Shown one piece after another: positions 3,075 to 49,204 of a stretch of DNA of 64,000 bases. The translations under genes were made by a program, and so were the position numbers. A model generated the notes under the pieces. The model made no database searches, had not been told where the DNA came from, and saw only the letters and a list, made by a program, of their open reading frames with translations. The stretch's first letter is position 1, and every line of letters starts with the position of its first letter. The stretch spans positions 10,814,088 to 10,878,087 of the forward strand of contig CM082590.2 of NCBI GenBank assembly GCA_040954595.2. The letters run 5' to 3'. The DNA comes from Balanoglossus misakiensis (lineage: Eukaryota; Animalia; Hemichordata).

Positions 3075-3440
3075 GTCCTCACTCTCTCGTCCCTAATTCT
3101 TATCTTGGTGCAGTGGCCAGACATGGTCAAGACGGCTGGAGATAGGTCAGGATGAGGTGTGGTGGATGGTCAGCAGTGTCCTACGTGTCTCACTGTGCCT
3201 TGGTTGCGCTTCACGACGCTTCACTGGGTCCGCTGTCTTGTCCGTTGAACTGATTGGTTTCTTCGGTACAGTCAGGCGGGTCCAGTCTTTGCATGCGTAG
3301 GTATAGACAAGCCCTACAGTTACCTCCTGTCTTGTGGCACGCAACACACGACAGTGGAGACTCGTGGTGGCTGGGACGCCTAACCCCATCACAGGTCGAG
3401 AGACCTGCCCACTGCCCAAAAAGTTACAGCTTTACAAATT
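3075..3440. repeat. Dispersed ~360-bp repeat of unknown class, adjoining a MITE
   Basis: Near-identical copy at ~45095-45455; both copies are followed directly by the same MITE. No recognisable coding motif. Confidence 0.7.
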
Positions 3441-5171: not shown

Positions 5172-6250
5172 ACAATGGATACAAGTAACCCAAAAGGTTT
5201 GTAGTGTTCTTATTAAGTGAAAGAATTCATGTGAACATTTCAAATATATTATTACTCATGGGCATGTCACCAAAACATTCTAAGAACGACACTTAAATAT
5301 ATAATAATTTTTTTGTGAACCATTATGTCATATCAATATCTCATTTTCCATATCCTTAGATCAAAAAATGGTTGGCTACGGGCAATGAGTCATCTGTGGT
5401 AGTATTATGTTTTAGTAACAAGAATAAAGTGCAATGGACCGGTAAGCAACTCTTACTAAATACTTTGATTTCATTTAGAAAAAAGAATATTGTCTCGTAC
5501 AGACACTGTTTTTTACACACACTTATTTTATGACTATGCATATTTATTTTCCAGCCTTAGAAGCACGCTTTTTAACAACAACAATTTGAAATTGTTTAAC
5601 ATTTTTCAAATGCAGGTGCCGGCATATGAAGGCCTTCGCAACCAACATCAATGTAATTAAAGCCTTCAGAAAAACTGCCTTGGGGAAAAAAATTGAGTTA
5701 GTTTTGCCCATTTTAAATTGACTGCAGTGTCACATTGTTACGAAGAATAAAAGAGTTATTTGAAAAGATATTTAAACGTGCATATTTACAGGGATGCTTA
5801 CTAACACTTACATATGTGTAATTGGAAATGTTATGTTTGATGATATTAAAAGATGAATCATGCATATTTTTTTCTATTTTTTTGTTCAAAGATCAAACGA
5901 ACAATTGAAAGCCTAAGAGAAAAGGTAACCTCATTGGCCAATGGGCCGTCGGTGGTTGTCATGTTCCTAGATGGAAACAAGATCAAGTGGAGTGGTAACT
6001 ATTATTAAATATATTATGATTTCATTTAAGGAGAGAAAATTGTCCCGTATAAACACTGTTTTTTTTACACACACTTATTTTACGACTGTGCATATTAAAT
6101 GTCCAGCCTTCGAAGCACGCTTTTTAACAACAATTTGAAATTGTTAAACATTTTTCAAATGCAGGTGCCGGCATATGAAGGCCTTCGCAACCAACATCAA
6201 TGTAATTAAGGCCTTCAGAAAATCTGCCTTGGGGGGAAAAAAATTGGGTG
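5172..6250 (+). pseudogene. Degenerate NRF1-like exon 1-3 fragments (two sets)
   Basis: An exon-2 homolog at ~5360-5441 (IKKWLATGNESSVVVLCFSNKNKVQWT) is intact. Both exon-3 homologs (~5616 and ~6166) have a 1-nt deletion (GCC GGC ATA TGA) and damaged donors. Confidence 0.6.
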
Positions 6251-6291: not shown

Positions 6292-8298
6292 TTTGGTACA
6301 AAATAGACCTGGGATGCTTACTAACACTTACATATGTGTATTTGGCATAGTTATGTTTTATGATATTAACAGATGAATCATGCATATTTTTTCTATTTTT
6401 TGTTCAAAGATTCAAAGAAGAATTGAGAGTCTTAGAAGAAAGGTACAGGCATTGGCCAATTTGGCCAATGGGCCGTCGGTGGTCGTCATGTTCCTAGATG
6501 GAAACAAGATCAAGTTTGGTACAAAATAAACCTGGGATGCTTACTAACACTTACATATGTGTATTTGGCATAGTTATGTTTTATGATATTAACAGATGAA
6601 TCATGCATATTTTTTCTATTTTTTGTTCAAAGATTAAAAGAAAACTAAATTCCATTCGGAGGAAGGTCGACTCATTGGTCAATTTGGCCAATGGGCCGTC
6701 GGTGGTCGTCATGTTCCTAGATGGAAACAAGATCAAGTTTGGTACAAAATAAACCTGGGATGCTTACTAACACTTACATATGTGTATTTGGCATAGTTAT
6801 GTTTTATGATATTAACAGATGAATCATGCATATTTTTTCTATTTTTTGTTCAAAGATTAAAAGAAAACTAAATTCCATTCGGAGGAAGGTCGACTCATTG
6901 GTCAATTTGGCCAATGGGCCGTCGGTGGTCGTCATGTTCCTAGATGGAAACAAGATCAAGTTTGGTACAAAATAGACCTGGGATGCTTACTAACACTTAC
7001 ATATGTGTATTTGGCATAGTTATGTTTTATGATATTAACAGATGAATCATGCATATTTTTTCTATTTTTTGTTCAAAGATTAAAAGAAAACTAAATTCCA
7101 TTCGGAGGAAGGTCGACTCATTGGTCAATTTGGCCAATGGGCCGTCGGTGGTCGTCATGTTCCTAGATGGAAACAAGATCAAGTTTGGTACAAAATAGAC
7201 CTGGGATGCTTACTAACACTTACATATGTGTATTTGGCATAGTTATGTTTTATGATATTAACAGATGAATCATGCATATTTTTTCTATTTTTTGTTCAAA
7301 GATTAAAAGAAAACTAAATTCCATTCGGAGGAAGGTCGACTCATTGGTCAATTTGGCCAATGGGCCGTCGGTGGTCGTCATGTTCCTAGATGGAAACAAG
7401 ATCAAGTTTGGTACAAAATAAACCTGGGATGCTTACTAACACTTACATATGTGTATTTGGCATAGTTATGTTTTATGATATTAACAGATGAATCATGCAT
7501 ATTTTTTCTATTTTTTGTTCAAAGATTAAAAGAAAACTAAATTCCATTCGGAGGAAGGTCGACTCATTGGTCAATTTGGCCAATGGGCCGTCGGTGGTCG
7601 TCATGTTCCTAGATGGAAACAAGATCAAGTTTGGTACAAAATAAACCTGGGATGCTTACTAACACTTACATATGTGTATTTGGCATAGTTATGTTTTCTG
7701 ATATTAACAGATGAATCATGCATATTTTTTCTATTTTTTGTTCAAAGATTAAAAGAAAACTAAATTCCATTCGGAGGAAGGTCGACTCATTGGTCAATTT
7801 GGCCAATGGGCCGTCGGTGGTCGTCATGTTCCTAGATGGAAACAAGATCAAGTTTGGTACAAAATAGACCTGGGATGCTTACTAACACTTACATATGTGT
7901 ATTTGGCATAGTTATGTTTTATGATATTAACAGATGAATCATGCATATTTTTTCTATTTTTTGTTCAAAGATTAAAAGAAAACTAAATTCCATTCGGAGG
8001 AAGGTCGACTCATTGGTCAATTTGGCCAATGGGCCGTCGGTGGTCGTCATGTTCCTAGATGGAAACAAGATCAAGTTTGGTACAAAATAGACCTGGGATG
8101 CTTACTAACACTTACATATGTGTATTTGGCATAGTTATGTTTTATGATATTAACAGATGAATCATGCATATTTTTTCTATTTTTTGTTCAAAGATTAAAA
8201 GAAGAATTGAAAGTCTTAGAAGAAAGGTACAGGCATTGGCCAATTTGGCCAATGAGCCGTCGGTGGTCGTCATGTTCCTAGATGGAAACAAGATCAAG
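6292..8298 (+). repeat. 223-bp tandem repeat, 9 units, each carrying a fused exon 1+2 of the NRF1-like gene
   Basis: The anchor tttggtacaaaata occurs at 6292, 6515, 6738, 6961, 7184, 7407, 7630, 7853 and 8076. Each unit has an acceptor (tttgttcaaag) followed by IKRKLNSIRRKVDSLVNLANGPSVVVMFLDGNKIK; the first and last units carry an I[QK]RRIESLRRKVQALANL variant. Confidence 0.9.
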
Positions 8299-8384
8299 TG
8301 GAGTGGTAACTATTATTTACATCTGTGGAGAAGCTGCTGCTGATGCCGATGATGATGATAGTGATGCTGATGCATCACCAGCAC

Positions 8385-9428: not shown

Positions 9429-12400
9429 ATCAAAAGTAAAATTAGAGAGATACGACGCAAGGTTTGTAGTGTTCTTATTAAGTGAAAGAATTCATGTGAA
9501 CATTTCAAATATATTGTTACTCATTTGCATGTCACCAAAACATTCTGTGTATTGAATGTAAAAGTACAACTGCCTAAATATAAGCAAGAACGACACTTAA
9601 ATATATAATAATTTTTGTGAGACATAATCTCATATCAATATATCATTTTCCATATCATTAGGTCGACTCGTTGGCCAAAATGGCCAATGGGCCAGCGGTG
9701 GTCGTCATGTTCCTAGTTGGAAAAAACATCAAGTGGAGTGGTAACTATTATTAAATATATTATTATTTCGTTTAAGAAAAGAAAAGTCTCGTATAGACAC
9801 TGTTTTTTACACACACTTATTTTATGACCGCATATTTATATTCCAGCCTTAGAAGCACGCCTTTTAACAACTAAAATTTGAAATAGTTTAACATTTTTCA
9901 AATGCAGGTGCCGGGCGTCTGAAGGCCTTCGCGACCAACACCAATGTGATTAAGGCCTTCAGAAGAGCGGCCTTGGGAAAAAAAAGTGAGTTAGTTTTGC
10001 CCAATTTAATGTGACTGCAGTGTCACAATATAAATATTTCTTAGTTGTTTTTTGTCTCTGTCTCTCTGAATGCTAACTTCATTGTGTTTTTGTATGTACT
10101 TGTATTGAATTGTTCTTCTGAAGATATATGCTTGGATTAAGTTTAAATGCGATGGTTTTCCTGTAATATGATTGAATGGTTCTTTGCTTACTGATTATTT
10201 GCCCTAAAGAATAATAACTACTTTTATATTGTTGACTTTGAATTCAGGTAACATCATTGAGCTGCCCAGCAGGGATTACATCGACTATTCTGTAAGGGAG
10301 CTGCGGCAGCTCATCCCCAAGGCCGTCGCTCCAACAGGTAAGTTTCCCGTTTTTAGTGCCCATTTGGTATTAAGGGATCAGTTTAATCTGGATGGATGGA
10401 TGGATGTCTGTCCACATAAAAAACTTTGAAACACGTTGGCACACCACCTTGATATTTGGTGTGTAGATGCAGGCTGGGCTGCAGATGAGAGTTTGTGTAT
10501 TAGGTCGAGAAAATGTAAAACTCTTCTCATAATCCTTGTGTGTGTTTTATTGTAAAGACATGTAGCACAAAGACAAAGCTGTCCAAATGTGTAACTCGTA
10601 CGTTAAGTGTATACCAAGAATCTCAGAAACAGCTTGGAAATGAATCTTGCCTGGAAAGGATCTGTTACATTCATGTTATTATTGACATTATTCTAATTAT
10701 TTCTTTATGTAGGCAGAGCTGTTTGGAGCGGTCCGGCACCCAACTGGTGGCCAGCCGCGATACCTTTTGTGTCACCAAACGCGACTGGTAAGTTAATTTT
10801 GTTTTAAAATGAATTCAACTGCTGTCAACAATGATGTGTAGATCGACACTTTTGGGATTGACAGTTAAATAATAACATCTGTTATCTGTCTGCATTTATG
10901 TATGTACGGTAGTCACATGACCTGGTAGGAAAATTGAATTTTCTGAAAATCTTGAAATGGCTTCTCAAAAATTCCAAGTTGAAATTTTGTGCCTGGAAAG
11001 TATGGTCTATACTCTTTTAAATGGTTGGCAGCAATATTGAACTAATTCCTAATTACAAATGTTTATACCGTGCATTTCTTCTCAGTCACCAGTTTCTTAG
11101 TTACTATGTTTGTTTAATTGATCAATACATATTTGTGAAGATATTATCTACTGTCCCATTGGGGAAAATGTATCCAATGGATAAACAAAGAATCTTTTTA
11201 TTGATTTATTATTATTCATTATTTATAGCATTCTTTCTTAATCATGTATCAGGTCAAGAAAATCTCCAAATTGGGGATTTGAGAACCATCATGAAAACCT
11301 TCCTGGACAAATGTCAGAAACATGTTATTGCTTTTAATATTGTTATTTATGTCATTCTTTCTCAATCATGTATCAGGTCGCCACCACTTTAAAAAATGGG
11401 AACTGGCGACCATCATGGAAGCATTTTTGGACAAATGTCCAAATAAATACAGGATGTAAGTTTTCCAGCTATAATTTTAAAATGGATACTTTATGCTTGA
11501 GAATATTTATGGCTTATTACACGAACTTTGGTCGATATCGCATCATATTTGAAAGATGTTTCCGTATTTTGATGATTTGCAAAGCAACAATAAAAGTACT
11601 GAATGGTCCCCTGCCCCAATCCCACCGCTGGCTGCGCTACACTAAAGGGAAAGGGTCAGACGCCTAAAATTCTGATAAAATTTGAACTGGGTGTCCTGAG
11701 ATCGCGGCCTTAGCCCTTAGCCAAGTTGTGACAGGGCGATGCAATCAGGTGATCAATGTGTAGGCTGTAGACTATCATGCTAAGGGGTTGGCAGCTTTCA
11801 TTATGATGGGCACATTCACATATTTTGCATGTTTATTGCATTATTTTACATAAGATTCATTCTTTGAAATTTATCTAAGTTTTTGTTATCATTTGGAATA
11901 TTGCATGGAGTTAATTTCATACATCATAAATTGAGTGCAACACCCTGAAATTAATGCATAGCAAATCTGGCAAGTCCTTTTCCACAAAACTAGATTGGGA
12001 AAATGGATAAATTTATATGGGACTTGATCACTTATTTTCATTACAGTACACACTGTTTATGTTTCTAGATCACATTAAAGAGGCACCATTTTTGAATTAT
12101 TCTCATGACATTACTTTTCACTTGAATGGCCGATTGAAATGTGCTAATTAAGTGGATGGTATACACAAAAATGTCAAACTCTGTTTGTAGAACAAGTGTT
12201 GCAACAATTTATACAACTACCTGTTGAAGGAATACAAATTATTGTGGTATGTGCACATGGGTATTACAATCCCCACAAAGATTGTTGGTATATTATCACT
12301 TAAAGGTAAAATGGCAGTTACTGGGTCTACTATAATTTTTTTTTTTATTTACAGCCGGGGGGAAGGGGATGACGACGATGATGATGACAATGATGACTAC

Positions 12401-12604
12401 GACGATGAAGATGATGATGAAGATGATGGCAGTGGCGGTGGTGGTGACGACGACGACGGCGACGCCGAACCGGAACCCGAACCGGAACCGGAAACGGAGG
12501 AAACGGAACCGGAACCGGAGGAACCGGAGGCGGAACCGGAGGAACCGGAACCGGAGGAACCGGAACCGGAGGAACCGGAACCGGAACCGGAACCAGAACC
12601 ATAA
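9429..12604 (+). CDS. NRF1/Ewg/P3A2-like DNA-binding protein with acidic tail, copy B (best preserved; 5' partial)
   Basis: Seven GT-AG exons (9429-9461, 9662-9740, 9908-9985, 10248-10337, 10713-10787, 11377-11455, 12355-12604) have compatible phases and no internal stop: IKSKIREIRRKVDSLAKMANGPAVVVMFLVGKNIKWSGAGRLKAFATNTNVIKAFRRAALGKKSNIIELPSRDYIDYSVRELRQLIPKAVAPTGRAVWSGPAPNWWPAAIPFVSPNATGRHHFKKWELATIMEAFLDKCPNKYRIRGEGDDDD...(EP)n*. An alternative exon 6 at 11253 (GQENLQIGDLRTIMKTFLDKC) reads to a stop at 11392. Start exon not found. Confidence 0.65.
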
Positions 12605-13459
12605 CCATAACCATAACCATAACCATAACCAGAACCATAACCATAACCATAACCATAACCAGACCCAGAACCAGAACCATAACCATAACCAGAACCAGAA
12701 CCAGAACCCGAAGGCGACGACGGCGACGATGGGGATGCTGATGGTGATGGTGGTGGGAGTGCTTATGGTGGTGCTGATGATGGAGATGGCGATCATGTTG
12801 GTGATGGTGATGAAGATGCATAACCAGCACCATTACCAACACGACCACACGACACGGGGGGAAGAAGAAGAAGACTACGCCGACGAAGACTTCGAAGACG
12901 ACGACGACGACGAAGACTACGCCGGCGAAGGCGTCAGTGACGACGACGGCGACGACGACCATGGGGATGCTGATGGTGATGGTGGTGGGGGTGCTTATGG
13001 TGGTGCTGATGATGGTGATGGCGATCATGATGGTGATGGTGATGGTCCTTTTCCACAAAACTAGATTGGGAAAATGGATAAATTTATATGGGACTTGATC
13101 ACTTATTTTCATTACAGTGCACACTGTTTATGTTTCTAGATCACATTAAATAGGCACCATTTTTGAATTATTCTCATGAAATTACTTTCCACTTGAATGG
13201 CCCATTGAAATGTGCTAATTAAGTGGATGGTATACACAAAAATGTCAAACTCTGTAGAACAAGTGTTGCAACAATTTATACAACTACCTGTTGAAGGAAT
13301 ACAAATTATTGTGGTATGTGCACATGGGTTTTACAATCCCCATAGAGATCGTGGTATATTATCACTTAAAGGTAAAATGGCAATTATTGGGGCTACTAGA
13401 ATTTTTTTTTTATTTACAGACGGGGGGAAGACGATGACAAAGACGAACCAGAACCAGAA

Positions 13460-13490
<31 letters not shown>

Positions 13491-14850
13491 AAGAGTCAGA
13501 GCAAGAGCCAGAGCCAGAGCCAGAGCAAGAGCCAGAGCAAGAGCCAGAGCAAGAGCAAGAGCCAGAGCAAGAGCCAGAGCAAGAGCCAGAGCCAGAGCCA
13601 GACGATGGGGATGCTGATGGTAATGGTGGTGGGGGTGCTTATGGTGGTGCTGATGATGGTGATGGCGATCATGTTGGTGATGGTGATGAAGATGCATCAC
13701 CAGCACCATTACCAACACGACCACACGACACGGGGGGAAGAAGAAGAAGACTACGCCGACGAAGACTTCGAAGACGACGACGACGACGAAGACTACGCCG
13801 GCGAAGGCGTCAGTGACGACGACGGCGACGACGACCATGGGGATGCTGATGGTGATGGTGGTGGGGGTGCTTATGGTGGTGCTGATGATCATGATGGTGA
13901 TGGTCCTTTTCCACAAAACTAGATTGGGAAAATGGATAAATTTATATGGGACTTGATCACTTATTTTCATTACAGTGCACACTGTTTATGTTTCTAGATC
14001 ACATTAAATAGGCACCATTTTTTAATTATTCTCATGACATTACTTTTCACTTGAATGGCCCATTGAAATGTGCTAATTAAGTGGATGGTATACACAAAAA
14101 TGTCAAACTCTGTTTGTAGAACAAGTGTTGCAACAATTTATACAACTACCCGTTGAAGGAATACAAATTATTGTGGTATGTGCACATGGGTATTACAATC
14201 CCCACAAAGATTGTTGGTATATTATCACTTAAAGGTAAAATGGCAGTTACTGGGTCTACTATAATTTTTTTTTTTATTTACAGCCGGGGGGAAGGGGATG
14301 ACGACGATGATGATGACAATGATGACTACGACGATGAAGATGATGATGAAGATGATGGCAGTGGCGGTGGCGGTGGTGGTGATGACGACGACGACGACGC
14401 CGAACCCGAACCGTAACCGTAACCGTAACCGGAGGAACCGGAGGAACCGTAACCGTAACCGGAGGAACCGGAGGAACCGTAACCGTAACCGGAGGAACCG
14501 GAGGAACCGGAACCGGAACCGGAACCGTAACCGGAGGAACCGGAGGAACCGTAACCGTAACCGGAGGAACCGTAACCGTAACCGGAGGAACCGTAACCGT
14601 AGGAACCGGAGGAACCGGAACCGGAACCGGAACCCGAAGGCGACGACGGCGACGATGGGGATGCTGTTGGTGATGGTGGTGGGGGTGCTTATGGTGGTGC
14701 TGATGATGGTGATGGCGATCATGTTGGTGATGGTGATGCTGATGCATCACCAGCACCATTACTAACACGACCACACGACACGGGGGGAAGAAGAAGAAGA
14801 AGAAAACGACGAAGACTACGGCGACGACCATGGGGAGGTCGATCGTCAAC
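11975..14850 (+). repeat. Triplicated intron-6/terminal acidic exon block with hexanucleotide microsatellites
   Basis: The same ~370-bp intron segment precedes acceptors at 12355, 13420 and 14284. The exons contain (GAACCG)n, (TAACCA)n, (GAGCCA/GAGCAA)n and (TAACCG)n runs. Confidence 0.85.
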
Positions 14851-16200
14851 AAATGTCCAGAAAAATTATGAAAGCAAGTTTTCCACGTTTTAAAATGGAG
14901 ACTTTATGTTAGAGAATATTTAGGGGTTATTACATTAAGTTTGGTCGATAACACATCATTTGTCCAGGAACATGTTATTGTTAATTATATCATGCTTTCT
15001 CAATCATGTATCAGGTTCACCACCACTTAAAAAAAGGATGTAAGTTTTCCAGCTATAATTTTAAAATGGATACTTTATGCTTGAGAATATTTATGGGTTA
15101 TTACACGAAGTTTGGTCGATAACGCATCATTTGTCCAGGAACATGTTATTGTTAATTATATCATGCTTTCTCAATCATGTATCAGGTCACCACCGCCTCA
15201 AAAAATGGGAACTGGCAACCATCATGGAGGCATTTTTAGAAAAATGCCCAAGTAAATACAGGACGCAAGTTTTCGAGCTATAATTTTAACATTGATACTT
15301 TATGCTTGAGAATATTTATGGGTTATTACACGAAGTTTGGTCGATAACGCATCATTTGTCCAGGAACATGTTATTGTTAATTATGTCATGCTTTCTCAAT
15401 CATGTATCAGGTCATCACCACAACCTAACGAAGAGGGACATGGCGACCATCATGTGTGCATTCATTCAAAAATGCCCAAGGAAATACAGGATGTAAGTTT
15501 TCCAGCTATAATTTTAAAATGGAGACTTTATGCTTGAGAATATTTAGGGGTTATTACATTAAGTTTGGTCGATATCGCATCATTTGTCCAGGAACATGTT
15601 ATTGTCAATTATGTCATTCTTTCTCAATCATGTATCAGGTCACCACCGCCTCAAAAAAAACGGGAACTGGCAACCATCATGGAGGCATTTCTAGAAAAAT
15701 GCCCAACAAAATACAGGATGTAAGTTTTCCAGCTATAATTTTAAAATGGATGCTTTATGCTTGAGAATATTTATGGGTTATTACACGAACTTTGGTGATA
15801 TCGCATCATTTGTCCAGGAACATGTTATTGTTAATTATGTCATGCTTTCTCAATCATGTATCAGGTCAACACAACCTATTGAAGAGGGACATGGCGACCA
15901 TCATGTGTGCATTTATTAGAAAATGTCCCACCCGATATAAAATGCAAGTTTTCCAGCTATAATTTTAAAATGGAAACTTTATGCTTGAGAATATTTAGAG
16001 GTTATTACACGAAGTTTGGTTGATATCGCATCATATTTGAAAGATGTTTCCGTATTTTGATGAGTTGCAAAGCAACAATAAAAGTACTGAATGGTCCCCT
16101 GCCCCAATCCCACCGCTGGCTGCGCTTCACTAAAGGGAAAGGGTCAGACGCCTAAAATTCTGATAAACGGCCAGAAATTTGAACCGGGTGTCCTGAGATC
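14850..16200 (+). repeat. ~226-bp tandem array of exon-6 variants of the NRF1-like gene
   Basis: The acceptor tcaatcatgtatcag precedes exons at ~15015 (internally deleted), 15186, 15411, 15639 (+2 frameshift) and 15865. The last four alternate between KKWELATIMEAF and KRDMATIMCAF types. Confidence 0.85.
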
Positions 16201-16204
16201 GCGG

Positions 16205-17500
16205 CAGTAGTTGTTTGATGATATTAGAGATGAATCATGCATATTTTTTTCAGTTTTTATGGTTCAAAGACAATGGATACAAGTAACCCAAAAGGTTTGT
16301 AGTGTTCTTATTAAGTGCAAGAATTCATATGAACATTTCAAATATATTATTACTCATGGGCATGTCACCAAAACATTCTAAGAACGACACTTAAATATAT
16401 AGTAATCTTTGTGAAACATCATGTCATATCAAGATCTCATTTTCCATATCATTAGATAAACAAATTGTTGGCTATGGCCAATGAGCCATCTGTGGTAGTA
16501 TTATGTTTTAGTAACAAGAACAAAGTACAATGGACCGGTAAGTAACTCTTACTAAATACTTTGATTTCATTTAAGAAATTTGAAATTGTTTAACATTTTT
16601 CAAATGCAGGTGCCTTTACAACCAACATCAATGTAATTAAGGCGTTCAGAAAAGCGGCCTTCGGAAAAAAGGGAGTTAGTTTTGTCCATTTTAAGGTGAC
16701 TGCAGTGTCACATTGTTACGAAGAATAAAACACCCACAGTTATTGGAAAAGATATTTAAACGTGCATTTACTGGGATGCTTACTTACATATGTGTATTTG
16801 GAAATGTTTTATGATATTAACAGATGAATCATGCATATTTTTTCTATTTTTTGTTCAAAGATTAAAAGAAGAATTGAAAGCATAAGAAAAAAGGTCGACT
16901 CATTGGCCAATTTGGCCAATGAGCCGTCGGTGGTCGTCATGTTCCTAGATGGAAACAAGATCAAGTTTGGTACAAAATAGACCTGGGATGCTTACTAACA
17001 CTTACATATGTGTATTTGGCATGGTTATGTTTTATGATATTAACAGATGAATCATGCATATTTTTTCTATTTTTTGTTCAAAGATTAAAAGGAAATTGCG
17101 CCGGCAATGGCCGCAAGTTGAAAGAAAGGTTTGTAGTCGGTGGTCGTCATGTTCCTAGTAGATGGAAACAAGATCAAGTTTGGTACAAAATAGACCTGGG
17201 ATGCTTACTAACACTTACATATGTGTATTTGGCATAGTTATGTTTTATGATATTAACAGATAAATCATGCATATTTTTTCTATTTTTTGTTCAAAGATTA
17301 AAAGGAAATTGCGCCGGCAATGGCCGCAAGTTGAAAGAAAGGTTTGTAGTCGGTGGTCGTCATGTTCCTAGATGGAAACAAGATCAAGTTTGGTACAAAA
17401 TAGACCTGGGATGCTTACTAACACTTACATATGTGTATTTGGAAATGTTTTATGATATTAACAGATGAATCATGCATACTTTTTCAATGTTTTTTGTTCA
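16205..17500 (+). pseudogene. Chimeric NRF1-like exon 1-3 fragments and short exon-1 tandem units
   Basis: Repeats the 5110-5900 block. Fused exon 1+2 at ~16861; exon-1 variants IKRKLRRQWPQVERK at ~17084 and ~17297. Confidence 0.55.
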
Positions 17501-17503
17501 AAG

Positions 17504-19091
17504 GTTACACAAAGAAAAATAACGAGAGCGTGGAGGCAAATTGAAAGGAAGGTTTGTAGTGTGCTTAGTCAGTGAAAGAATTCATGTGAACAGTTCAAAT
17601 ATACAGTTAATCATTTGCATGTCACCAAAACGTTATTAAATGTAAAAGTACAACAGCCTAAATATAAGCAAGAACGACACTTAAGTATATAATAATCTTT
17701 GTGAAATATTATGTCATATCAACATCTCATTTTCCATATCATTAGATCAAAAAATGGCTGGAGATGGCCAAACAACCATCTGTGGTTGTTTTCTATTTCA
17801 AGAAAAATAAAGTGGAATGGACTGGTAAGTAACTGTTACTAAATACTTTGAAATATGATTTCATTTAAGAAAAGAAAATTGTCTTGCATAGACACTGTTT
17901 TTTACACACTTATTTTATGACTATGCATATTTATTTTCTAGCCTTAGAAGTGCGCTTTTTAATGTAAGGTTTTTAAAAATGCAGCTTTAAAAAGAGGTGA
18001 GAGTAAGTTTTGTTCGTTTTAAGGGTGACTGCAGAGTGACATTACAAATATTTCTTAGTTGTTTCATTTTTTGTCTGTGTCTGTCTAAATGCTAACTGTT
18101 TTTTTGTGATTTTACAAGGAAATGGATTGAAATGTTCTTCTGAAGATATATGCTCGGATTAAGTTTAAATGTGATGTGATTGAATGGTTTTCTTTGCTTA
18201 CTGATTATTTGCCCAAAAGGATAATAACTACTTTTATATTGTTGACTTTAGATCAAAAACTAACTTTTAAAAGCAGAGACGCTGAAGATTACAATGTCAC
18301 TGAGCTGCGAAAGAATATTACCAGGGCAGTTAGTGATAAAGGTAAGGTACCCGTTTTTAAGTTGCAAACACATATATACATACAGCTTGGAAATGAATCT
18401 TGCCTGGAAAGGATCTGTTACATTAATGTTGTTATTGACATTATTCTAATTATTTCTCTTTGTATTATGTAGGGCACCGCAATGACTGGAAGGGCCAACG
18501 CCCAGAATGGTGGCCCACAAGGGCTCCATTTAAATCCCCCAATGCTCGAAGTAAGTTTTGTTTGTATAATATAAGTGCCTTTGTTAATTGCTGTCAACAA
18601 TGATGTGTAGATCGACACTTGTGGGATTGACAGCATCTGTTATCTGTCTGCATTTATGTATGTACGGTAGTCACATGACCTGGTAGGAAAATTGAATTTT
18701 CTGAAAATCTTGAAATGGCTTCTCAAAAATTTTAAGTTGAAATTTTATGTGTGGCAAGTATGGTCTATACTCTTTTAAATGGTTGGCAGCAATATTGAAC
18801 TAATTCCTAATTACAAATGTTTATACCGTGCATTTCTTCTCAGTCACCAGTTTCTTAGTTACTATGTTTGTTTAATTGATCAATACATATTTGTGAAGAT
18901 ATTATCTACTGTCCCATTGGGGAAAACGTATCCAACGAAAAAAACAAAGATTTTTTATTGATTTATTATTATTATTTATTAATTAAAGCATTTTTTCTTA
19001 ATCATTTTTCAGCTAAAGAAAGCCTGAAAAGATTTCAGTTGGAGGCAATATTTCAGGCGTTCCTGGACAAATGTCCGCAAAAGTATAAAAT
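17504..19091 (+). CDS. NRF1-like protein, copy C (second sequence type; exon 3 mostly deleted)
   Basis: Exons 17504-17551, 17746-17824, 18252-18341, 18473-18550 and 19013-19091 splice in frame: VTQRKITRAWRQIERKIKKWLEMAKQPSVVVFYFKKNKVEWTDQKLTFKSRDAEDYNVTELRKNITRAVSDKGHRNDWKGQRPEWWPTRAPFKSPNARTKESLKRFQLEAIFQAFLDKCPQKYK. Confidence 0.5.
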
Positions 19092-22000
19092 GTAAGTTAT
19101 CCAGGTAGACGTTTTAAAATGGAGACTTTATGCTATTATGAAAACTGCCCATGTCAAATATTATTCCAAAATGGTTTGTCATGCACATGAAATATTTTTA
19201 AACTTTAAAATCATGGAAAAATCATGTTTATTTCTTGATATTTGGCCAAAATAATTTCAATATTAAATTTATGCAAATTAGACATATTTCCACATGGTGG
19301 ATTCGGGTGCATTTTTGATATGTTGTTCTAGACACCTCTCCACAGTATATTCTGAAAAAAAAATTCTGTTGCAATTTGTGGTGGGTCTAGCCCTATATTT
19401 ACTAGACTAAGTCAAAGAGCTGAGACAGCTTATTCAAAAAGCTGTCAGTACAACAGGCAAAAGGTATGTATGGAGCAGCCAAGCATATGAAGGGGTTCGC
19501 GACAAACAAAAGTATCCGAAAGGCTTTCAAAAAAGCAGCCTTAAAAAAGGTGAGAGTAAGTTTTGTTCGTTTTAAGGATGACTGCATTGTCACATTGTTA
19601 CGAAGAATAAAACAGTTATTGGAAAAGATATTTAAACGTGCATTTACTGGGATGCTTACTTACATATGTGTATTTGGAAATGTTTTATGATATTAACAGA
19701 TGAATCATGCATACTTTTTCTATTTTTTTTTCAAAGATTAAAAGAAGAATTGAGTCTTCTAAGAAAGGTTAACTCGTTGGCCAATTTGGCCAATGAGCCG
19801 TCGGTGGTCGTCATGTTCCTAGATGGAAACAAGATCAAGTGGAGTGGTAACTATTATTAAATATATTATGATTTCATTTAAGAAGAGAAAATTGTCCCGG
19901 CAATGGCCGCAAGTTAAAAGAAAGGTTTGTAGTGTTCTTATTAAGTTAAAGAATTCATGTGAACATTTCAAATATATTGTTACTCATTTGCATGTCACCA
20001 AAACATTCTATGTATTGAATGTAAAAGTACAACAGCTAGCCTATATATAAAGCTCATTGAGCTGCCCAGCAAGGACTACATAGATTATTCGGTTGTCGTC
20101 ATGTTCCTAGATGGAAACAAGATCAAGTGGAGTGGTAACTATTATTAAATATATTATGATTTCATTTAAGAAAAGAAAATTGTCTCGTATAAACACTGTT
20201 TTTTACACACACTTATTTTATGACTGCATATCAATTTTCCAGCCTTCGAAGCACGCTTTTTAACAACAACAATTTGAAATTGTTTAACAAGTGCCGGCAT
20301 ATGGTGGTTGGAAGTAGCCAATCAACCATCTGTGGTTGTTTGTTATTTCCACAACAAGTGCAATGGACTGGTAAGTAACTGTTACTAAATACTTTGAAAT
20401 ATGATTTCATTTAAGAAAACTGTCCTGTATAGACACTGTTTTTTACACAAACTTATTTTATGACTGTGCATATTTATTTTCTAGCCTTAGAAGCACGCTT
20501 TTTAACAACTAAAATTTGAAATTGTTTAACATTTTTCAAATGCAGGTGCCGGGCATATGATGGGATTCGCGACAAACCAAAGTATCCAAAAGGCTTTCAA
20601 AAAAGCAGCCTTAAAAAAAGGTGAGAGTAAGTTTTGTTCATTTTAAGGGTGACTGCATTCTCACATTGTTACGAAGAATAAAACAGTTATTGGAAAAGAT
20701 ATTTAAACGTGCATTTACTGGCCCAGGGATGCTTACTTACATAAGTGTATTTGGAAATGTTTTATGATATTAACAGATGAATCATGCATATTTTTTCAAT
20801 GTTCTTTGTTCAAAAGTTCAACAAAGAAAAATCAGGAGGGAGTGGATACACGTGTGTATTTGAATCTTGCAAATTTTTTTCTATTTTTTTTGTTCAACGA
20901 TCAAAAGTAAAATAAGAGAGATACGACGCAAGGTTTGTAGTGTTCTTATTAAGTGAAAGAATTCATGTGAACATTTCAAATATATTATTACTCATGGGCA
21001 TGTCACCAAAACATTCTGTGTATTGAATGTAAAAGTACAACAGCCTAAATATAAGCAAGAACGACACTAAAGTATATAATAATCTTTCTGAAATATTATG
21101 TCATATCAATATCTCATTTTCCATATCATTAGATCAAAAAATGGTTGGAAGTAGCCAATCAACCATCTGTGGTTGTTTTTTATTTCCGGAAAAATAAAGT
21201 GGAATGGACTGGTAAGTAACCGTTACTAAATATTTTGAAATATGATTTCATTTAAGAAAAGAAAATTGTCTTGCATAGACATTGTTTTTACACACTTATT
21301 TTATGACTATGCATATTTATTTTCTAGCCTTAGAAGTGCGCTTTTTAATGTGAGGAAGGCTTTTAAAAATGCAGCTTTAAAAAGAGGTGAGAGTAAGTTT
21401 TGTTCGTTTTAAGGGTGACTGCAGAGTGACATTACAAATATTTCTTAGTTGTTTCATTTTTTGTCTGTGTCTGTCTAAATGCTAACTGTTTTTTTGTGAT
21501 TTTATAAGGAAATGGATTGAAATGTTCTTCTGAAGATATATGCTCGGATTAAGTTTAAATGTGATGTGATTGAATGGTTTTCTTTGCTTACTGATTATTT
21601 GCCCAAAAGGATAATAACTACTTTTATATTGTTGACTTTAGATCAAAAACTAACTTTTAAAAGCAGAGACGCTGAAGATTACAATGTCACTGAGCTGCGA
21701 AAGAATATTACCAGGGCAGTTAGTGATAAAGGTAAGGTACCCGTTTTTAAGTTGCAAACACATATATACATACAGCTTGGAAATGAATCTTGCCTGGAAA
21801 GGATCTGTTACATTAATGTTGTTATTGACATTATTCTAATTATTTCTCTTTGTATTATGTAGGGCACCGAAATGATTGGAAAGGCCAACGCCCAGAATGG
21901 TGGCCCACAAGGGCTCCATTTCAATCCCCCAATGATCGAAGTAAGTTTTGTTTGTATAATATAAGTGCGTTTGTTAATTGCTGTCAACAATGATGTGTAG

Positions 22001-24750
22001 ATCGACACTTGTGGGATTGACAGCATCTGTTATCTGTCTGCATTTATGTATGTACGGTAGTCACATGACCTGGTAGGAAAATTGAATTTTCTGAAAATCT
22101 TGAAATGGCTTCTCAAAAATTCCAAGTTGAAATTTTGTGCCTGGAAAGTATGGTCTATGCTCTTTGAAATGGTTGGCAGCAATATTGAATTAATTCCTAA
22201 TTACAAATGTTTATACCGTGCATTTCTTCTCAGTCACCAGTTTCTTAGTTACTATGTTTGTTTAATTGATCAATACATATTTGTGAAGATATTATCTACT
22301 GTCCCATTGGGGAAAACGTATCCAACGAAAAAAACAAAGATTTTTTATTGATTTATTATTATTATTTATTAATTAAAGCATTTTGTCTTAATCATTTTTC
22401 AGCTAAAGAAAGCCTGAAAAGGTTTCAATTGGAGGCCATATTCCAGGCGTTCCTGGACAAATGCCCACAAAAATATAAAATGCAACTTTTCCAGGTAAGC
22501 GTTTTAAAATGGAGACTTTCTATACTTGAGAATATTTAGGGGTTATTACACGTAGTTTGGTCGATAACAAATAATTTCTCCATAAAGATTGTGATATATT
22601 ATCACTTAAAGGTAAAATGGCAGTTATTGGGTTTACTATAATTTTTTTTTTATTTACAGCCACGGAGAAGATAATCATCCTGATGATGAAGATGCTGTTG
22701 GGGACATTGCTGATGGGGACGATTCTGTCGGGGACATTGCTAATGGGGATGATGCTGATTTTATGTGTGGCAAGTATGGTCTATGCTCTTTTAAATGGTT
22801 GGCAGCAATATTGAACTAATTCCTAATTACAAATGTTTATACCGTGCATTTCTTCTCAGTCACCAGTTTCTTAGTTACTATGTTTGTTTAATTGATCAAT
22901 ACATATTTGTGAAGATATTATCTACTGTCCCATTGGGGAAAACGTATCCAACGAAAAAAACAAAGATTTTTTATTGATTTATTATTATTATTTATTAATT
23001 AAAGCATTTTTTCTTAATCATTTTTCAGCTAAAGAAAGCCTGAAAAGATTTCAGTTGGAGGCAATATTTCAGGCGTTCCTGGACAAATGTCCGCAAAAGT
23101 ATAAAATGTAAGTTATCCAGGTAGACGTTTTAAAATGGAGACTTTATGCTATTATGAAAACTGCCCATGTCAAATATTATTCCAAAATGGTTTGTCATGC
23201 ACATGAAATATTTTTAAACTTTAAAATCATGGAAAAATCATGTTTATTTCTTGATATTTGGCCAAAATAATTTCAATATTAAATTTATGCAAATTAGACA
23301 TATTTCCACATGGTGGATTCGGGTGCATTTTTGATATGTTGTTCTAGACACCTCTCCAAAGTATATTCTGAAAAAAAATTCTGTTGCAATTTGTGGTGGG
23401 TCTAGCCCTATATTTACTAGACTAAGTCAAAGAGCAGAGACAGCTTATTCAAAAAGCTGTCAGTACAACAGGCAAAAGGTATGTATGGAGCAGCCAAGCA
23501 TATGAAGGGGTTCGCGACAAACAAAAGTATCCGAAAGGCTTTCAAAAAAGCAGCCTTAAAAAAGGTGAGAGTAAGTTTTGTTCGTTTTAAGGATGACTGC
23601 ATTGTCACATTGTTACGAAGAATAAAACAGTTATTGGAAAAGATATTTAAACGTGCATTTACTGGGATGCTTACTTACATATGTGTATTTGGAAATGTTT
23701 TATGATATTAACAGATGAATCATGCATACTTTTTCTATTTTTTTTCAAAGATTAAAAGAAGAATTGAGTCTTCTAAGAAAGGTTAACTCGTTGGCCAATT
23801 TGGCCAATGAGCCGTCGGTGGTCGTCATGTTCCTAGATGGAAACAAGATCAAGTGGAGTGGTAACTATTATTAAATATATTATGATTTCATTTAAGAAGA
23901 GAAAATTGTCCCGGCAATGGCCGCAAGTTAAAAGAAAGGTTTGTAGTGTTCTTATTAAGTTAAAGAATTCATGTGAACATTTCAAATATATTGTTACTCA
24001 TTTGCATGTCACCAAAACATTCTATGTATTGAATGTAAAAGTACAACAGCTAGCCTATATATAAAGCTCATTGAGCTGCCCAGCAAGGACTACATAGATT
24101 ATTCGGTTGTCGTCATGTTCCTAGATGGAAACAAGATCAAGTGGAGTGGTAACTATTATTAAATATATTATGATTTCATTTAAGAAAAGAAAATTGTCTC
24201 GTATAAACACTGTTTTTTACACACACTTATTTTATGACTGCATATCAATTTTCCAGCCTTCGAAGCACGCTTTTTAACAACAACAATTTGAAATTGTTTA
24301 ACATTTTTCAAATGCAGGTGCCGGCATATGGTGGTTGGAAGTAGCCAATCAACCATCTGTGGTTGTTTTTTATTTCCACAACAAGTGCAATGGACTGGTA
24401 AGTAACTGTTACTAAATACTTTGAAATATGATTTCATTTAAGAAAAGAAAACTGTCCTGTATAGACACTGTTTTTTACACACACTTATTTTATGACTGTG
24501 CATATTCATTTTCTAGCCTTAGAAGCACGCTTTTTAACAACTAAAATTTGAAATTGTTTAACATTTTTCAAATGCAGGTGCCGGGCATATGATGGGGTTC
24601 GCGACAAGCCAAAGTATCCGAAAGGCTTTCAAAAAAGCAGCCTTAAAAAAGGTGAGAGTAAGTTTTGTTCATTTTAAGGGTGACTGCATTGTCACATTGT
24701 TACGAAGAATAAAACAGTTATTGGAAAAGATATTTAAACGTGCATTTACT
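18742..24750 (+). repeat. Direct segmental duplication, ~2 kb (18742-20720 vs 22758-24750)
   Basis: Near-identical sequence at an offset of ~4016 bp; duplicated ORFs at 18779/22795, 19466/23481 and 19823/23837. Confidence 0.85.
21133..22820 (+). pseudogene. NRF1-like copy D (damaged)
   Basis: Exons 21133-21211, 21642-21731, 21863-21940, 22403-22481 (GC donor) and an acidic exon from 22660 that is cut by a duplication junction at ~22758. The exon-1 acceptor is mutated (caacg) and exon 3 lacks its 5' half. Confidence 0.55.
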
Positions 24751-24824
24751 TGGATAAATGTTTACTTGTTTTATGATATTAACAGATGAATCATGCATAC
24801 TTTTTCAATGTTTTTTGTTCAAAG

Positions 24825-25946
24825 GTTACACAAAGAAAAATCACGAGAGAGTGGAGGCAAATTGAAAGGAAGGTTTGTAGTGTGCTTAGTCAGTGAAAGA
24901 ATTCATGTGAACAGTTCAAATATACAGTTAATCATTTGCATGTCACCAAAACGTTATTAAATGTAAAAGTACAACAGCCTAAATATAAGCAAGAACGACA
25001 CTTAAGTATATAATAATCTTTGTGAAATATTATGTCATATCAATATCTCATTTTCCATATCATTAGATCAAAAAATGGTTGGAGATGGCCAAACAACCAT
25101 CTGTGGTTGTTTTTTATTTCAAGAAAAATAAAGTGCAATGGACCGGTAAGTAACTGTTACTAAATACTTTGAAAAATGATTTCATTTAAGAAAAGAAAAT
25201 TGTCTCGTATAGACGCTGTATTTACACACTTATTTTATGACTGTGCATATTTATTTTCTAGCCTTAGAAGTACGCTTTTTAACAACCACAATTTGAAATT
25301 GTTTAACATTTTTCAAATGCAGATGCCCGCCATATGGCAAAATTTGCTAAAAACAAAAATATAAGGAAGGCGTTTAAAAATGCAGCTTTAGAAAAAGGTG
25401 AGAGTAAGTTTTGTTCATTTTAAGGGTGACTGCAGTGTGACATTACAAATATTTCTTAGTTGTTTCATTTTTTGTCGGTGTCTGTCTAAATGCTAACTTT
25501 TTTGTGATTTTATAAGGAAATGGATTGAAATGTTCTTCTGAAGATATATGCTCGGATTAAGTTTAAATGTGATGTGATTGAATAGTTTTCTTTGCTTACT
25601 GATTATTTGCCCAAAAGAATAATAACTACTTTTATATTGTTGACTTTAGATCAAAAACTAACTTTTAAAAGCAATGACGCAGAAGATTACACAGTCACTG
25701 AGCTGAGAAGAAATATTACCAGGGCAGTTAGTGATAAAGGTAAGGTACCCGTTTTTAAGTTGCAAACACATATATACATACAGCTTGGAAATGAATCTTG
25801 CCTGGAAAGGATCTGTTACATTAATGTTGTTATTGACATTATTCTAATTATTTCTTTGTATTATGTAGGGCACCGAAATGACTGGAAGGGCCACCGCCCA
25901 GAATGGTGGCCCACAAGGGCTCCATTTAAATCCCCCAATGCTCGAA
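24825..25946 (+). CDS. NRF1-like protein, copy E (exons 1-5 intact, 3' exons lost)
   Basis: Exons 24825-24872, 25067-25145, 25323-25397, 25650-25739 and 25869-25946 are in frame: VTQRKITREWRQIERKIKKWLEMAKQPSVVVFYFKKNKVQWTDARHMAKFAKNKNIRKAFKNAALEKDQKLTFKSNDAEDYTVTELRRNITRAVSDKGHRNDWKGHRPEWWPTRAPFKSPNAR. A rearrangement junction at ~26400 removes exon 6. Confidence 0.5.
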
Positions 25947-27609
25947 GTAAGTTTTGTTTGTATAATATAAGTGCCTTTGTTAATTGCTGTCAACAATGAT
26001 GTGTAGATCGACACTTGTGGGATTGACAGCATCTGTTATCTGTCTGCATTTATGTATGTACGGTAGTCACATGACCTGGTAGGAAAATTGAATTTTCTGA
26101 AAATCTTGAAATGGCTTCTCAAAAATTCCAAGTTGAAATTTTGTGCCTGGAAAGTATGGTCTATGCTCTTTTAAATGGTTGGCAGCAATATTGAACTAAT
26201 TCCTAATTACAAATGTTTATACTGTGCATTTCTTCTCAGTCACCAGTTTCTTAGTTACTATGTTTGTTTAATTGATCAATACATATTTGTGAAGATGTTA
26301 TCTACTGTCCCATTGGGGAAAACGTATCCAATGGATAAACAAATAAGTTTTTTATTAATTTATTATTATTTGTTATTTAATAGCACGCTTTCTCAACCCT
26401 TACTAATTCTTTATGATTTCATTTTAAGAAGAGAAAATTGTCTCGTATAGACACGGTTTTAAACCCACTTCAATTATTTTATGATTGTGCTTTATGGCAT
26501 ATTAAATTTTCCAGCCTTAGAAGCACGCTTACTACAATTTGAATTAGTTTAACACTTTTCAAATGCAGGTGCCAGGCATATGAAATCATTTGCCAAAAAC
26601 ACCAATATAGTGAAAGGCCTTCAGCTCTGGCAGCCAAAAAAGAGGAGAGCAGGTGTTGTAGTACAGTGATGAACTCGCTTTGATTATGGCAAAACAATAA
26701 CATTTTCATGTAAAATCCAACCCCAGCACTGGTGGGCATGTGGGCCACATCCACCCTTTATGGACAACTAAAACACTGTATAGTGTGGCAAGAATTAATT
26801 AAGTGCCGTGACAAGTTAATTCTGAGTCCAGTAGGACCATATGGAATCGGTTGCATTTGTATGGATGGATGGAATTGTCCATACAAATTAAAAACATCAC
26901 ATTGGAATTTGGTGCGGAGCTACAGGCTTAACTGTAGAAGTGAATGTAAACCAGGTTATTTTGCGAGCAATAAATTTTCGTGAAATATGTGTGAAGCAAA
27001 AAAAATGTGAAAATAAAACATCGCATAAAATGTTTTTCGGAGATAACGATGCAGTAAAGAGAACTCAAAAATTAATCTTTAAACTGTTGCCTCTTTTGAT
27101 ATCGCGAAAAATTTACTGTCGCCCAAATAACCCGTTATACAGTATTAGGTGGGAAAATGTCATCGTCGCAAACCACGGCCCTTTTACGGCAGCGCTCTGC
27201 TCCCCGCAAAAAGGCCGTGGTATAATACGGCCATGTATTCAGTATTTGGTCTAGGCGCTTTCACAGTACATCCAACAACCAATCAGATTGCTTGTTACAT
27301 CCCATTCACGCATCTCATTACATCTCATTCTAAACAACATGGCGGCTTCCAGTGGCAGTGCTCTGAGAAGTGCGCTTGTCCCAGCTCTCCTTGAGAGACG
27401 GGCTTTGATTGGCCAGATTATAATGATGTCATCTCATGAATATGCATTACCAATATGTTCAAATACCAGCGCGGTACTCCATTTTAACCAGAGTACGTGA
27501 TTTCGATAGTGAAACGAAAGAAATCCGTAGTCTGGTGGGGCGAGAATGGAAAATGTGAAAATGTTCTCATAATCAATAATTCACTTTCTTTGGGTTGGGG
27601 GATACTCCA

Positions 27610-29751: not shown

Positions 29752-32317
29752 TCACACCCCTAAATATTCTAAAGCATAAAGTCTCCATTTTAAAACGTCT
29801 ACCTGGAAAACTTGTATTTTATACTTTTGCGGACATTTGTCCAGGAACGCCTGAAATATTGCCTCCAACTGAAATCTTTTCAGGCTTTCTTTAGCTGAAA
29901 AATGATTAAGAAAAAATGCTTTAATTAATAAATAATAATAATAAATCAATAAAAAATCTTTGTTTTTTTCGTTGGATACGTTTCCCCCAATGGGACAGTA
30001 GATAATATCTTCACAAATATGTATTGATCAATTAAACAATCATAGTAACTAAGCAACTGGTGACTGAGAAGAAATGCACGGTATAAACATTTGTAATTAG
30101 GAATTAATTCAATATTGCTGCCAACCATTTCAAAGAGCATAGACCATACTTTCCAGGCACAAAATTTCAACTTGGAATTTTTGAGAAGCCATTTCAAGAT
30201 TTTCAGAAAATTCAATTTTCCTACCAGGTCATGTGACTACCTTACATACATAAATGCAGACAGATAACAGATGCTGTCAATCCCACAAGTGTCGATCTAC
30301 ACATCATTGTTGACAGCAATTAACAAACGCACTTATATTATACAAACAAAACTTACTTCGATCATTGGGGGATTGAAATGGAGCCCTTGTGGGCCACCAT
30401 TCTGGGCGTTGGCCTTTCCAATCATTTCGGTGCCCTACATAATACAAAGAGAAATAATTAGAATAATGTCAATAACAACATTAATGTAACAGATCCTTTC
30501 CAGGCAAGATTCATTTCCAAGCTGTATGTATATATGTGTTTGCAACTTAAAAACGGGTACCTTACCTTTATCACTAACTGCCCTGGTAATATTCTTTCGC
30601 AGCTCAGTGACATTGTAATCTTCAGCGTCTCTGCTTTTAAAAGTTAGTTTTTGATCTAAAGTCAACAATATAAAAGTAGTTATTATTCTTTTGGGCAAAT
30701 AATCAGTAAGCAAAGAAAACCATTCAATCACATCACATTTAAACTTAATCCGAGCATATATCTTCAGAAGAACATTTCAATCCATTTCCTTATAAAATCA
30801 CAAAAAAGTTAGCATTTAGACAGACACAGACAAAAAAAGAAACAACTAAGAAATATTTGTAATGTCACTCTGCAGTCACCCTTAAAACGAACAAATCTTA
30901 CTCTCACCTTTTTTTAAAGCTGCATTTTTAAATGCCTTCCTTACATTTTTGTTTAATGCAAATTTTGCCATATGGCGGGCACCTGCATTTGAAAAATGTT
31001 AAACAATTTCAAATTGTGGTTGTTAAAAAGCGTACTTCTAAGGCTAGAAAATAAATATGCACAGTCATAAAATAAGTGCGTAAAAAACAGTGTCTATGCA
31101 AGACAATTTTCTTTTCTTAAATGAAATCATATTTCAAAGTATTTAGTAACGGTTACTTACCAGTCCATTCCACTTTATAAATAAAAAAACAACCACAGAT
31201 GGTTGATTGGCTACTTCCAACCATTTTTTGATCTAATGATATGGAAAATGAGATATTGATATGACATAATATTTCAGAAAGATTATTATATACTTTAGTG
31301 TCGTTCTTGCTTATATTTAGGCTGTTGTACTTTTACATTCAATACACAGAATGTTTTGGTGACATGCCCATGAGTAATAATATATTTGAAATGTTCACAT
31401 GAATTCTTTCACTTAATAAGAACACTACAAACCTTGCGGCGTATTTCTCTTATTTCACTTTTGATCTTTGAACAAAAAAAATAGAAAAAAATTTGCAAGG
31501 TTCAAATACACACGTGTATCCACTCCCTCCTGATTTTTCTTTGTTGAACCTTTGAACAAAGAACATTGAAAAAATATGCATGATTCATCTGTTAATATCA
31601 TAAAACATTTCCAAATACACTTATGTAAGTAAGCATCCCGGGCCAGTAAATGCACGTTTAAATATCTTTTCCAATAACTGTTTTATTCTTCGTAACAATG
31701 TGACAATGCAGTCACCCTTAAAATGAACAAAACTTACTCTCACCTTTTTTTAAAGCTGCTTTTTTAAAAGCCTGTCTTATATTTTTGTTTTTAGCAAATT
31801 TTGCCATATGGCGGGCACCTGCATTTGAAAAATGTTAAACAATTTCAAATTGTGGTTGTTAAAAAGCGTACTTCTAAGGCTAGAAAATAAATATGCACAG
31901 TCATAAAATAAGTGTGTAAAAAACAGCGTCTATGCAAGACAATTTTCTTTTCTTAAATGAAATCATATTTCAAAGTATTTAGTAACAGTTACTTACCGGT
32001 CCATTGCACTTTATTTTTCTTGAAATAAAAAACAACCACAGATGGTTGTTTGGCCATCTCCAACCATTTTTTGATCTAATGATATGGAAAATGAGATATT
32101 GATATGACATAATATTTCACAAAGATTATTATATACTTAAGTGTCGTTCTTGCTTATATTTAGGCTGTTGTACTTTTACATTTAATAACGTTTTGGTGAC
32201 ATGCAAATGATTAACTGTATATTTGAACTGTTCACATGAATTCTTTCACTGACTAAGCACACTACAAACCTTCCTTTCAATTTGCTTCCACTCTCTCGTG
32301 ATTTTTCTTTGTGTAAC
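29752..32317 (-). CDS. NRF1-like protein, copy F (inverted; 5' partial)
   Basis: Exons 32317-32270, 32075-31997, 31818-31744 (second exon-3 copy at 30982-30908), 30655-30566, 30434-30357 and 29894 onward are in frame. The exon-6 donor is mutated, so it reads through to a stop at 29752. Inverted duplicate of sequence at 20.6-22.5 kb and 24.7-25.4 kb. Confidence 0.5.

Positions 32318-35635: not shown

Positions 35636-37674
<2,039 letters not shown>

Positions 37675-42925: not shown

Positions 42926-42965
<40 letters not shown>

Positions 42966-49170: not shown

Positions 49171-49204
<34 letters not shown>

Follow-up and report, generated by a model that had tools for sequence, protein, structure and literature searches.

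In red/green opsin genes of primates and in the colobine RNase duplicates, gene conversion homogenises the introns while the exons retain older differences, a pattern called the 'peak of divergence' in the accessible portion of the study that describes it (Fawcett and Innan 2011, PMC3924837). A probable, deeper case of this pattern is found in the hemichordate Balanoglossus misakiensis, in a 64,000-nt window of contig CM082590.2 (assembly GCA_040954595.2), which contains at positions 324-32317 a rearranged cluster made up of copies of a single animal gene with introns. The cluster has six fuller copies, with partial copies and tandem arrays (periods of 223, 228, and 213 bp) in between. All copies compared lie within this window, which comes from one assembly of one species. 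Splice sites served to place exons E1 to E6, each 33-93 nt long, and the acidic E7; the introns measure 130-460 nt. Copies A0 and B are called class 1, and copies C, D, E, and F class 2. The introns are 86-99% alike among copies, while the exons comprise several very old versions.

Homogenised introns, older exon differences, and discordant intron and exon trees are shared with the opsins and RNases. However, as far as the accessible text on those genes goes, there a few exons of duplicates 30-40 million years old are modestly apart (PMC3924837), while here five domain exons are all saturated at synonymous sites, each exon has three to six old lineages behind common flanks, single exons are swapped, and most copies are broken. 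The inversion of intron and exon divergence is already explained by known theory and the process is known; what is new is how deep it goes here, that it affects every exon, how many exon lineages there are, and that swaps are seen directly. Multigene clusters with frequent exchange, in which introns resemble each other more closely than exons do, are also known from the lettuce RGC2 Type I resistance genes, the HLA class I genes, and the snake-venom PLA2 genes. In these families, which serve immunity or venom, the exons are under positive selection, whereas the cluster gene is likely a transcription factor in which the proportion of nonsynonymous differences (pN) is far below that of synonymous ones (pS). 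Silent-cassette systems, such as the chicken immunoglobulin pseudogenes, the trypanosome VSG genes, and the lamprey VLR genes, keep arrays of broken copies that carry variant coding segments between common flanks. The cluster likewise has such arrays, but its unit is a spliced exon between introns, whereas those systems diversify one expression site in somatic cells or by a dedicated mechanism or enzyme.

Between B and copies C to F, introns differ at 4-14% of sites and exons 2-6 at 33-47%. The whole-gene profile of B against F gives 0.04-0.12 mismatches per site in introns, 0.33-0.47 in exons 2-6a, and just 0.12 in exon 1; in 20-nt bins, the count steps from 0-3 mismatches before acceptors to 4-12 after them. 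Among 143 exon pairs, which are not independent of one another, the exon is more diverged than its 60-nt flanks in 128, less in 13, and equally in 2. An earlier note on this DNA had described the inversion from exon 4 of B and E (10248-10337 and 25650-25739), and a recount agrees with it: 11 of 29 residues are identical, 8 of the 11 by different codons. The two intron stretches that it called near-identical are so, with 1/58 differences upstream of exon 4 (10182-10239 against 25590-25647) and 5/310 in the intron-5 core (10880-11190 against 26035-26345). However, these are the best patches, and others differ by 9-14%. The interval to which the pattern had been assigned, 10130..26350, was too narrow, as the same pattern is present in A0 (324-3076) and F (29816-32317), both on the minus strand.

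In the pooled exons 2-6 of B and class 2 (128 codons), 55/128 residues are identical, pS is 69.8/81.2 = 0.86, 18/23 fourfold sites differ, and pN is 115.2/302.8 = 0.38. Set against an intron divergence of 0.04-0.14, this pS confirms that the inversion includes synonymous sites, which are saturated between classes. Within exon lineages (15 pairs), pS is 0.224 and pN 0.058. Saturated pS, with pN well below it, marks the exons as ancient coding sequence kept by purifying selection and not as the product of runaway positive selection. The classes also differ in codons with G or C at the third position (GC3; 81 against 51 of 128 codons, p=3e-4), which long separate histories would produce. Strong positive selection acting on exons after a recent duplication, in the style of the morpheus and toxin genes, would fit the high absolute between-class pN; as a general cause it is contradicted by a pS that is saturated and exceeds pN both between and within classes, and it is extremely improbable. 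The same comparisons (0.38 against 0.86 between classes, 0.058 against 0.224 within lineages) speak against the extreme diversifying pressure that the earlier note had offered as one explanation, and bear out its argument that positive selection alone cannot explain the synonymous divergence.

Evidence for conversion comes from the introns themselves. Across the four whole introns of B and E, divergence is heterogeneous (chi-square p=0.002); the longest identical run is 135 nt and the longest run with at most three differences is 293 columns, and neither length is reached in any of 10,000 shuffles of the 1093 columns. Over the intron-5 core, E differs from B at 5/310 sites but from C at 13/310, and the tree of this core, which leaves out A0 as it lacks the core, joins B and E with support 99/97, though their exons are only about 50% alike. 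Separate trees per exon and per intron, which had been proposed as a check, disagree. The intron-1 tree groups B with A, A2, D, and F against C, E, and Fa (support 100/100), whereas the exon 4 and exon 5 trees place B and A0 against class 2 (100/100). The intron-3 tree keeps the class split, and therefore the conversion tracts would be of different ages. The intron-5 core of B is the clearest candidate for a conversion tract between classes. The idea that a class-2 acceptor had been converted into exon 4 of A0 was also considered and dropped, since B may be the derived copy at the E4 and E5 acceptors.

Two other explanations of the intron similarity can be weighed on these data. Regulatory or RNA elements under purifying selection could hold the introns while the exons diverge normally, and all five introns do stay within about 14% between classes. 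However, the introns accept insertions and deletions of 11-250 nt between copies (intron 4 of class 1 holds an insertion of about 250 nt), the intron-5 core is replaced in A0, no Rfam family reaches threshold in the window, and the identity is patchy with discordant trees; such constraint is very unlikely. The other is that intron copies were collapsed to a single consensus during assembly. Among the contigs listed, none spans a whole gene, and sequencing runs X1 and X2 are possibly from the source sample and so non-independent. Nevertheless, the introns carry private as well as shared substitutions, insertions, and deletions at a divergence of 0-14%, and exons of 75-90 nt, being shorter than a read, would not be spared by a collapse. 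An X2 contig over the intron-5 core has a depth of 952 against 126 for adjoining unique sequence, which is not a copy number but a weak hint of genuine multi-copy identity. We therefore give an assembly artefact hardly any credence.

Over parts of the class-1 region (14771-14976, 15839-16051, and 11171-11480), contigs of X1 and X2 reach about one third to two thirds of the unique-sequence depth, which hints weakly at a different structure of the other haplotype. A third run, X3, carries the label 'DNA?', but we infer that it is RNA because one of its contigs, of 1712 nt, links pieces at exon borders: an E0 (with an end that matches 3029-3048, minus strand), E1, E1-E2, E2 to E3, and E3 to E1. 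In the same contig, a class-1 E2 is joined to a class-2 E6 at GT..AG. Its pieces are 0-5 letters off the window sequence and stand in a different order, so that their source would be a related locus or haplotype, and the E3-to-E1 join shifts the phase, so that this RNA would encode no intact domain. The contig, a single one of a single sample, lends support to the splice sites and has exon classes mixed in one molecule. The X3 contigs cover neither E4 nor E5, a lack that is uninformative on expression.

Whole single exons have also been exchanged between copies. Comparing B with A0, E6a differs at 2/70 sites, the next intron piece at 1/54, E6b at 25/79, and intron 6 at 9/235 (E6b against its pooled flanks, 12/359, p=3e-12). 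The E6b of B clusters with array units 15186 and 15639, and that of A0 with units 15411 and 15865. Likewise, E1 of B and D differs at 1/33 sites while E2, which in B is of class 1, is about 30% apart. Single-linkage clustering at 82% gives six lineages of E1 (13 copies), three of E2 (11), four of E3 (10), and four of E6 (12); not every identical array repeat was entered in these counts. In the E6 array (15186-15943), the 60-nt flanks differ by 0-3 bases upstream and 3-6 downstream and the exons by 20-37%, except for one pair of the same lineage at 6%. Variant arrays with common flanks exist for E1-E2 and for E6, the sole hint of a donor role being the recurring versions of E6b. Mutually exclusive exon arrays of the Dscam type hold variant exons between the same constitutive exons. 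The E6 array is not of this kind, as it lies downstream of the stop-bearing E7 copies of B, and only E6a, which is truncated, and E6b are found inside B.

The exon lineages outnumber the intact genes in the window, and precise intronless joins are present between E1 and E2 (at 14/26 E1 starts) and between E4 and E5 (in two fragments). These joins are possible footprints of cDNA, and would fit a young intron scaffold into which RNA-templated recombination brought the exons of ancient or processed paralogues. However, short microhomology lies at the borders of both lost introns (AGGT for intron 1, AGG for intron 4), so that deletion at the DNA level suffices to explain the losses; further microhomology joins are found inside exons elsewhere in the cluster. 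Moreover, recombination is hard to initiate between exons that are 50% alike, and neither a poly(A) tail nor a fully processed copy was seen in the window. Import of exons by this route is quite unlikely.

A pair of tandem acyl-CoA dehydrogenase paralogues about 10 kb from the cluster shows the mirror pattern and serves as a control of ordinary polarity. Three of its exons are old (23/108, 36/130, and 40/175 differences; pS 0.52-0.70) and others have been converted (exon 5, 0/168; exon 2, 3/122). One tract runs from within exon 7, across intron 7 (10/169), into exon 8, and the remaining introns give no BLAST match between the paralogues. Since converted exons stand beside old ones, conversion tracts of 120-350 nt that end where homology ends do occur in this window, there with the usual polarity. 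A mosaic of divergence within a gene, as in the cluster, is also described for HMA4 of Arabidopsis halleri, a case of tandem paralogues undergoing interlocus conversion, where the conversion rate drops with divergence, in the accessible part of that report (bioRxiv 10.1101/2025.10.29.685298). However, the same part has exons and short introns of HMA4 converted while long introns escape, which is the usual polarity of the acyl-CoA dehydrogenase pair.

The cluster is probably the result of repeated interlocus gene conversion and unequal exchange among neighbouring copies, which homogenise introns, stall at diverged exons, and sometimes swap whole exons. The earlier note had proposed that converted introns act as homology arms for the swapping of old exons, and the patchy intron identity, the discordant trees, and the single-exon swaps all favour this proposal. 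The paralogues would have separated long ago, and selection on the protein may initially have held the exon versions apart. The exons, now about 50% identical, would themselves block strand exchange, so that tracts end near splice sites, while dense neighbouring copies would keep the conversion rate high and introns of only a few hundred nucleotides would not escape. The two introns flanking an exon could act as homology arms, occasionally carrying the entire exon across. It is likely that such exchange also scrambled the cluster into mostly broken copies and exon-variant arrays. Beyond this heterology barrier, selection may also keep the exons apart.

Several points weigh against this explanation. 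Five of the six fuller copies are broken, which makes present-day selection at the locus doubtful; given so many broken copies, the lineages were probably preserved by selection on functional genes at other places or in the past. Class 2 by itself also has more variation in exons than in introns (31/370 against 34/1127 sites, p=5e-5). Conversion from the other class cannot explain this excess, which would need further hidden sub-lineages or selection, neither of them demonstrated. E6 of C and D shows seven synonymous and no amino-acid differences, and the intron downstream differs as well (19/60). No family assignment of the protein reached the significance threshold in Pfam, Atlas, or PDB sequence searches. 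In the model proposed for the HMA4 paralogues, as given in the accessible part of its description, introns that no conserved exons hold will escape conversion (bioRxiv 10.1101/2025.10.29.685298), so that the rate of conversion has to be high if introns are to stay alike for long next to saturated exons.

The excess of exon variation within class 2 also touches on a hypermutation targeted to exons. The cluster would then be as young as its introns (at most 14% deep), and its exons would mutate 10-20 times faster, for instance because of editing or error-prone cDNA, most amino-acid changes then being lost to purifying selection. The exon excess in 128 of the 143 pairs fits this, as do its persistence within class 2, a within-lineage pS of 0.224 against an intron variation of about 0.03, and the involvement of A at 26/31 variable class-2 exon sites but 18/34 in introns. 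Nevertheless, exon distances are stepwise, the same versions recur at separate places, GC3 differs by class, the intron trees require conversion anyway, and the neighbouring acyl-CoA dehydrogenase pair has an identical 168-nt exon. Two particular forms were also considered. CpG-driven exon mutation was tested and is unsupported, with just 2/31 changes of CpG type, and adenine-confined mutagenesis like that of diversity-generating retroelements does not agree with twofold sites at which C/T vary like A/G (8/68 against 12/91, p=1). All in all, exon-targeted hypermutation is unlikely.

The coordinates of the copies and of other features are given in Table 1. An open E1-E7 model (227 codons, GT-AG introns) is obtained for B alone, whose surroundings yielded no start exon. 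In A0, the upstream exon E0 is interrupted by a repeat and only its 3' end remains. Copy F has a 7-nt deletion in its second E2 and has lost the usual GT donor of E6.

Table 1. Copies of the cluster gene and other features of the window.
Feature	Position	Strand	Details
Copy A0 (class 1), broken	324..3076	-	E0 3' end 3025-3076; intronless E1-E2 2757-2861; E3 missing; E4 2396-2488; E5 1782-1862; E6a 1375-1444; E6b 1242-1320; E7 from 345
Dispersed repeat	3077-3762; 45096-45801		686-700 bp, 92% alike, internal inverted similarity; one copy cuts E0 of A0
Partial copy A	5080..6250	+	E1 of 25 nt, E2 of third lineage, E3 with frameshift; followed by intronless E1-E2 and another E3
223-bp tandem array, 9 units	6292..8299	+	Common acceptor and intronless E1-E2; two E1 lineages
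196-bp array	8386-9150		Made of E7-related pieces
Copy B (class 1)	9429..12604	+	E1 9429-9461; E2 9662-9740; E3 9908-9985; E4 10248-10337; E5 10713-10787; truncated E6a 11253-11322; E6b 11377-11455; acidic/EP-repeat E7 from 12355
Intron-5 core of B	10880..11190	+	Near-identical to E; other sequence at this place in A0
Intron-6 end and acidic exon E7, three tandem copies	12355..14830	+	Starts 12355, 13420, 14284; Glu-Pro hexamer expansions differ
228-bp array of exon-6 variants	14976..15943	+	Units 15186, 15411, 15639, 15865; two old lineages, near-identical intron flanks
Partial copy A2 and 213-bp E1/E2 array	16208..17507	+
Copy C (class 2)	17504..19091	+	E1 17504; E2 17746; E3 acceptor deleted; E4 18252; E5 18473; E6 19013
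Further-lineage fragment, E4 fused to E5 without intron	19411..19479; duplicate 23426-23494	+	tblastn E 4e-4 over exon border; joined to E3 fragment; lineage otherwise absent from window
Copy D (class 2)	20900..22481	+	E1 20900 (acceptor CG); E2 21133; E3 acceptor deleted; E4 21642; E5 21863; E6 22403
Copy E (class 2)	24825..26396	+	E1 24825; E2 25067; E3 25323; E4 25650; E5 25869; ends late in intron 5, without E6
Intron 4 of copy E	25740-25868	+	2-nt deletion gives open in-frame read-through joining exons 4 and 5
Copy F (class 2, inverted)	29816..32317	-	Two E1-E2-E3 modules; E4 30655; E5 30434; E6 29894
Exon-like ORFs	35636-37776	-	Presumably resembling a WSC-domain/sulfotransferase-like membrane protein
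Acyl-CoA dehydrogenase paralogues, tandem	40040-43750; 46000-49830	+
Exon-like ORFs	56560-58698	-	Presumably resembling a clathrin adaptor small (sigma) subunit
GC-rich satellite	58834-64000		59/116-bp period, about 5 kb, to window end

Weak leads suggest that the product is NRF1/EWG-like, with a putative MADS-like dimerisation part and a putative helical DNA-binding part. In the Atlas, the E4-E5 reading has PF10491 at rank 3 (0.83; 172/256 features, low recognition score) and also PF11001, and for E1-E2 the best named matches are SRF-TF or SRF-type MADS clusters (0.76). In Pfam, four of the five exon-5 copies match PF11001 at E 0.11-0.38; PF10491 gave no match at its curated cut-off for single exons (24-49 aa) or P0001, in scans that cover unspliced pieces. 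Against the sequences of the PDB, P0001 and the profiles of four exons returned chance matches alone. Homologue searches gave 0/632 candidates at E<=1 for A2 against longer proteins and 0/1054 at E<=10 for P0001. The one match from a representative library, P0002, was rejected, since it aligns mainly to the intron-derived part and is a repetitive, junk-like protein. The AlphaFold model of E1-E2 is poor (pLDDT 57), only the first helix being confident.

The layout of the gene recalls, in our view, that of NRF1/EWG, although NRF1 is normally a conserved single-copy gene. We take the invariant Arg of exon 4 and Asn of exon 5 to be candidates for the base contacts of NRF1, by resemblance and not by an alignment to NRF1. 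According to the part of the structural report that is accessible, NRF1 carries a MADS-like dimerisation domain and, after it, a helical DNA-binding domain, and its R206, N242, and R244 contact bases (PMC10810270). As far as that part allows the comparison, the order in NRF1/EWG/P3A2 would match that predicted for the cluster gene: a MADS-like N-terminal module, a Trp/Pro-containing helical part, and an acidic tail (PMC10810270). However, the cluster gene is multi-copy, fast-diverging, and without a significant sequence match. No publication on the same pattern in this family or on an NRF1-like expansion was found in a library that is short on subscription papers. Exon swaps would change dimerisation or DNA recognition of the predicted NRF1/EWG-like factor with its acidic tail.

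A more far-reaching proposal, which we regard as speculative and doubtful, is that the cluster is a germline cassette archive of an NRF1-like family. Its introns would be universal homology arms, its broken copies and arrays would store ancient dimerisation and DNA-recognition exons, and swaps into expressed copies would give combinatorial DNA-binding specificities, as a zinc-finger-free counterpart of the turnover of KRAB-ZNF or PRDM9 genes against repeats.

The cluster is an extreme case, in which short introns stay within 14% while every domain exon is saturated at silent sites. It offers a small natural experiment on the time for which concerted evolution lasts in short introns and on whether introns can be arms for the shuffling of exons between old paralogues. 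Dating and trees based on the introns of such families mislead. If the swapped exons alter DNA recognition, this would be a new route to the diversification of transcription factors.

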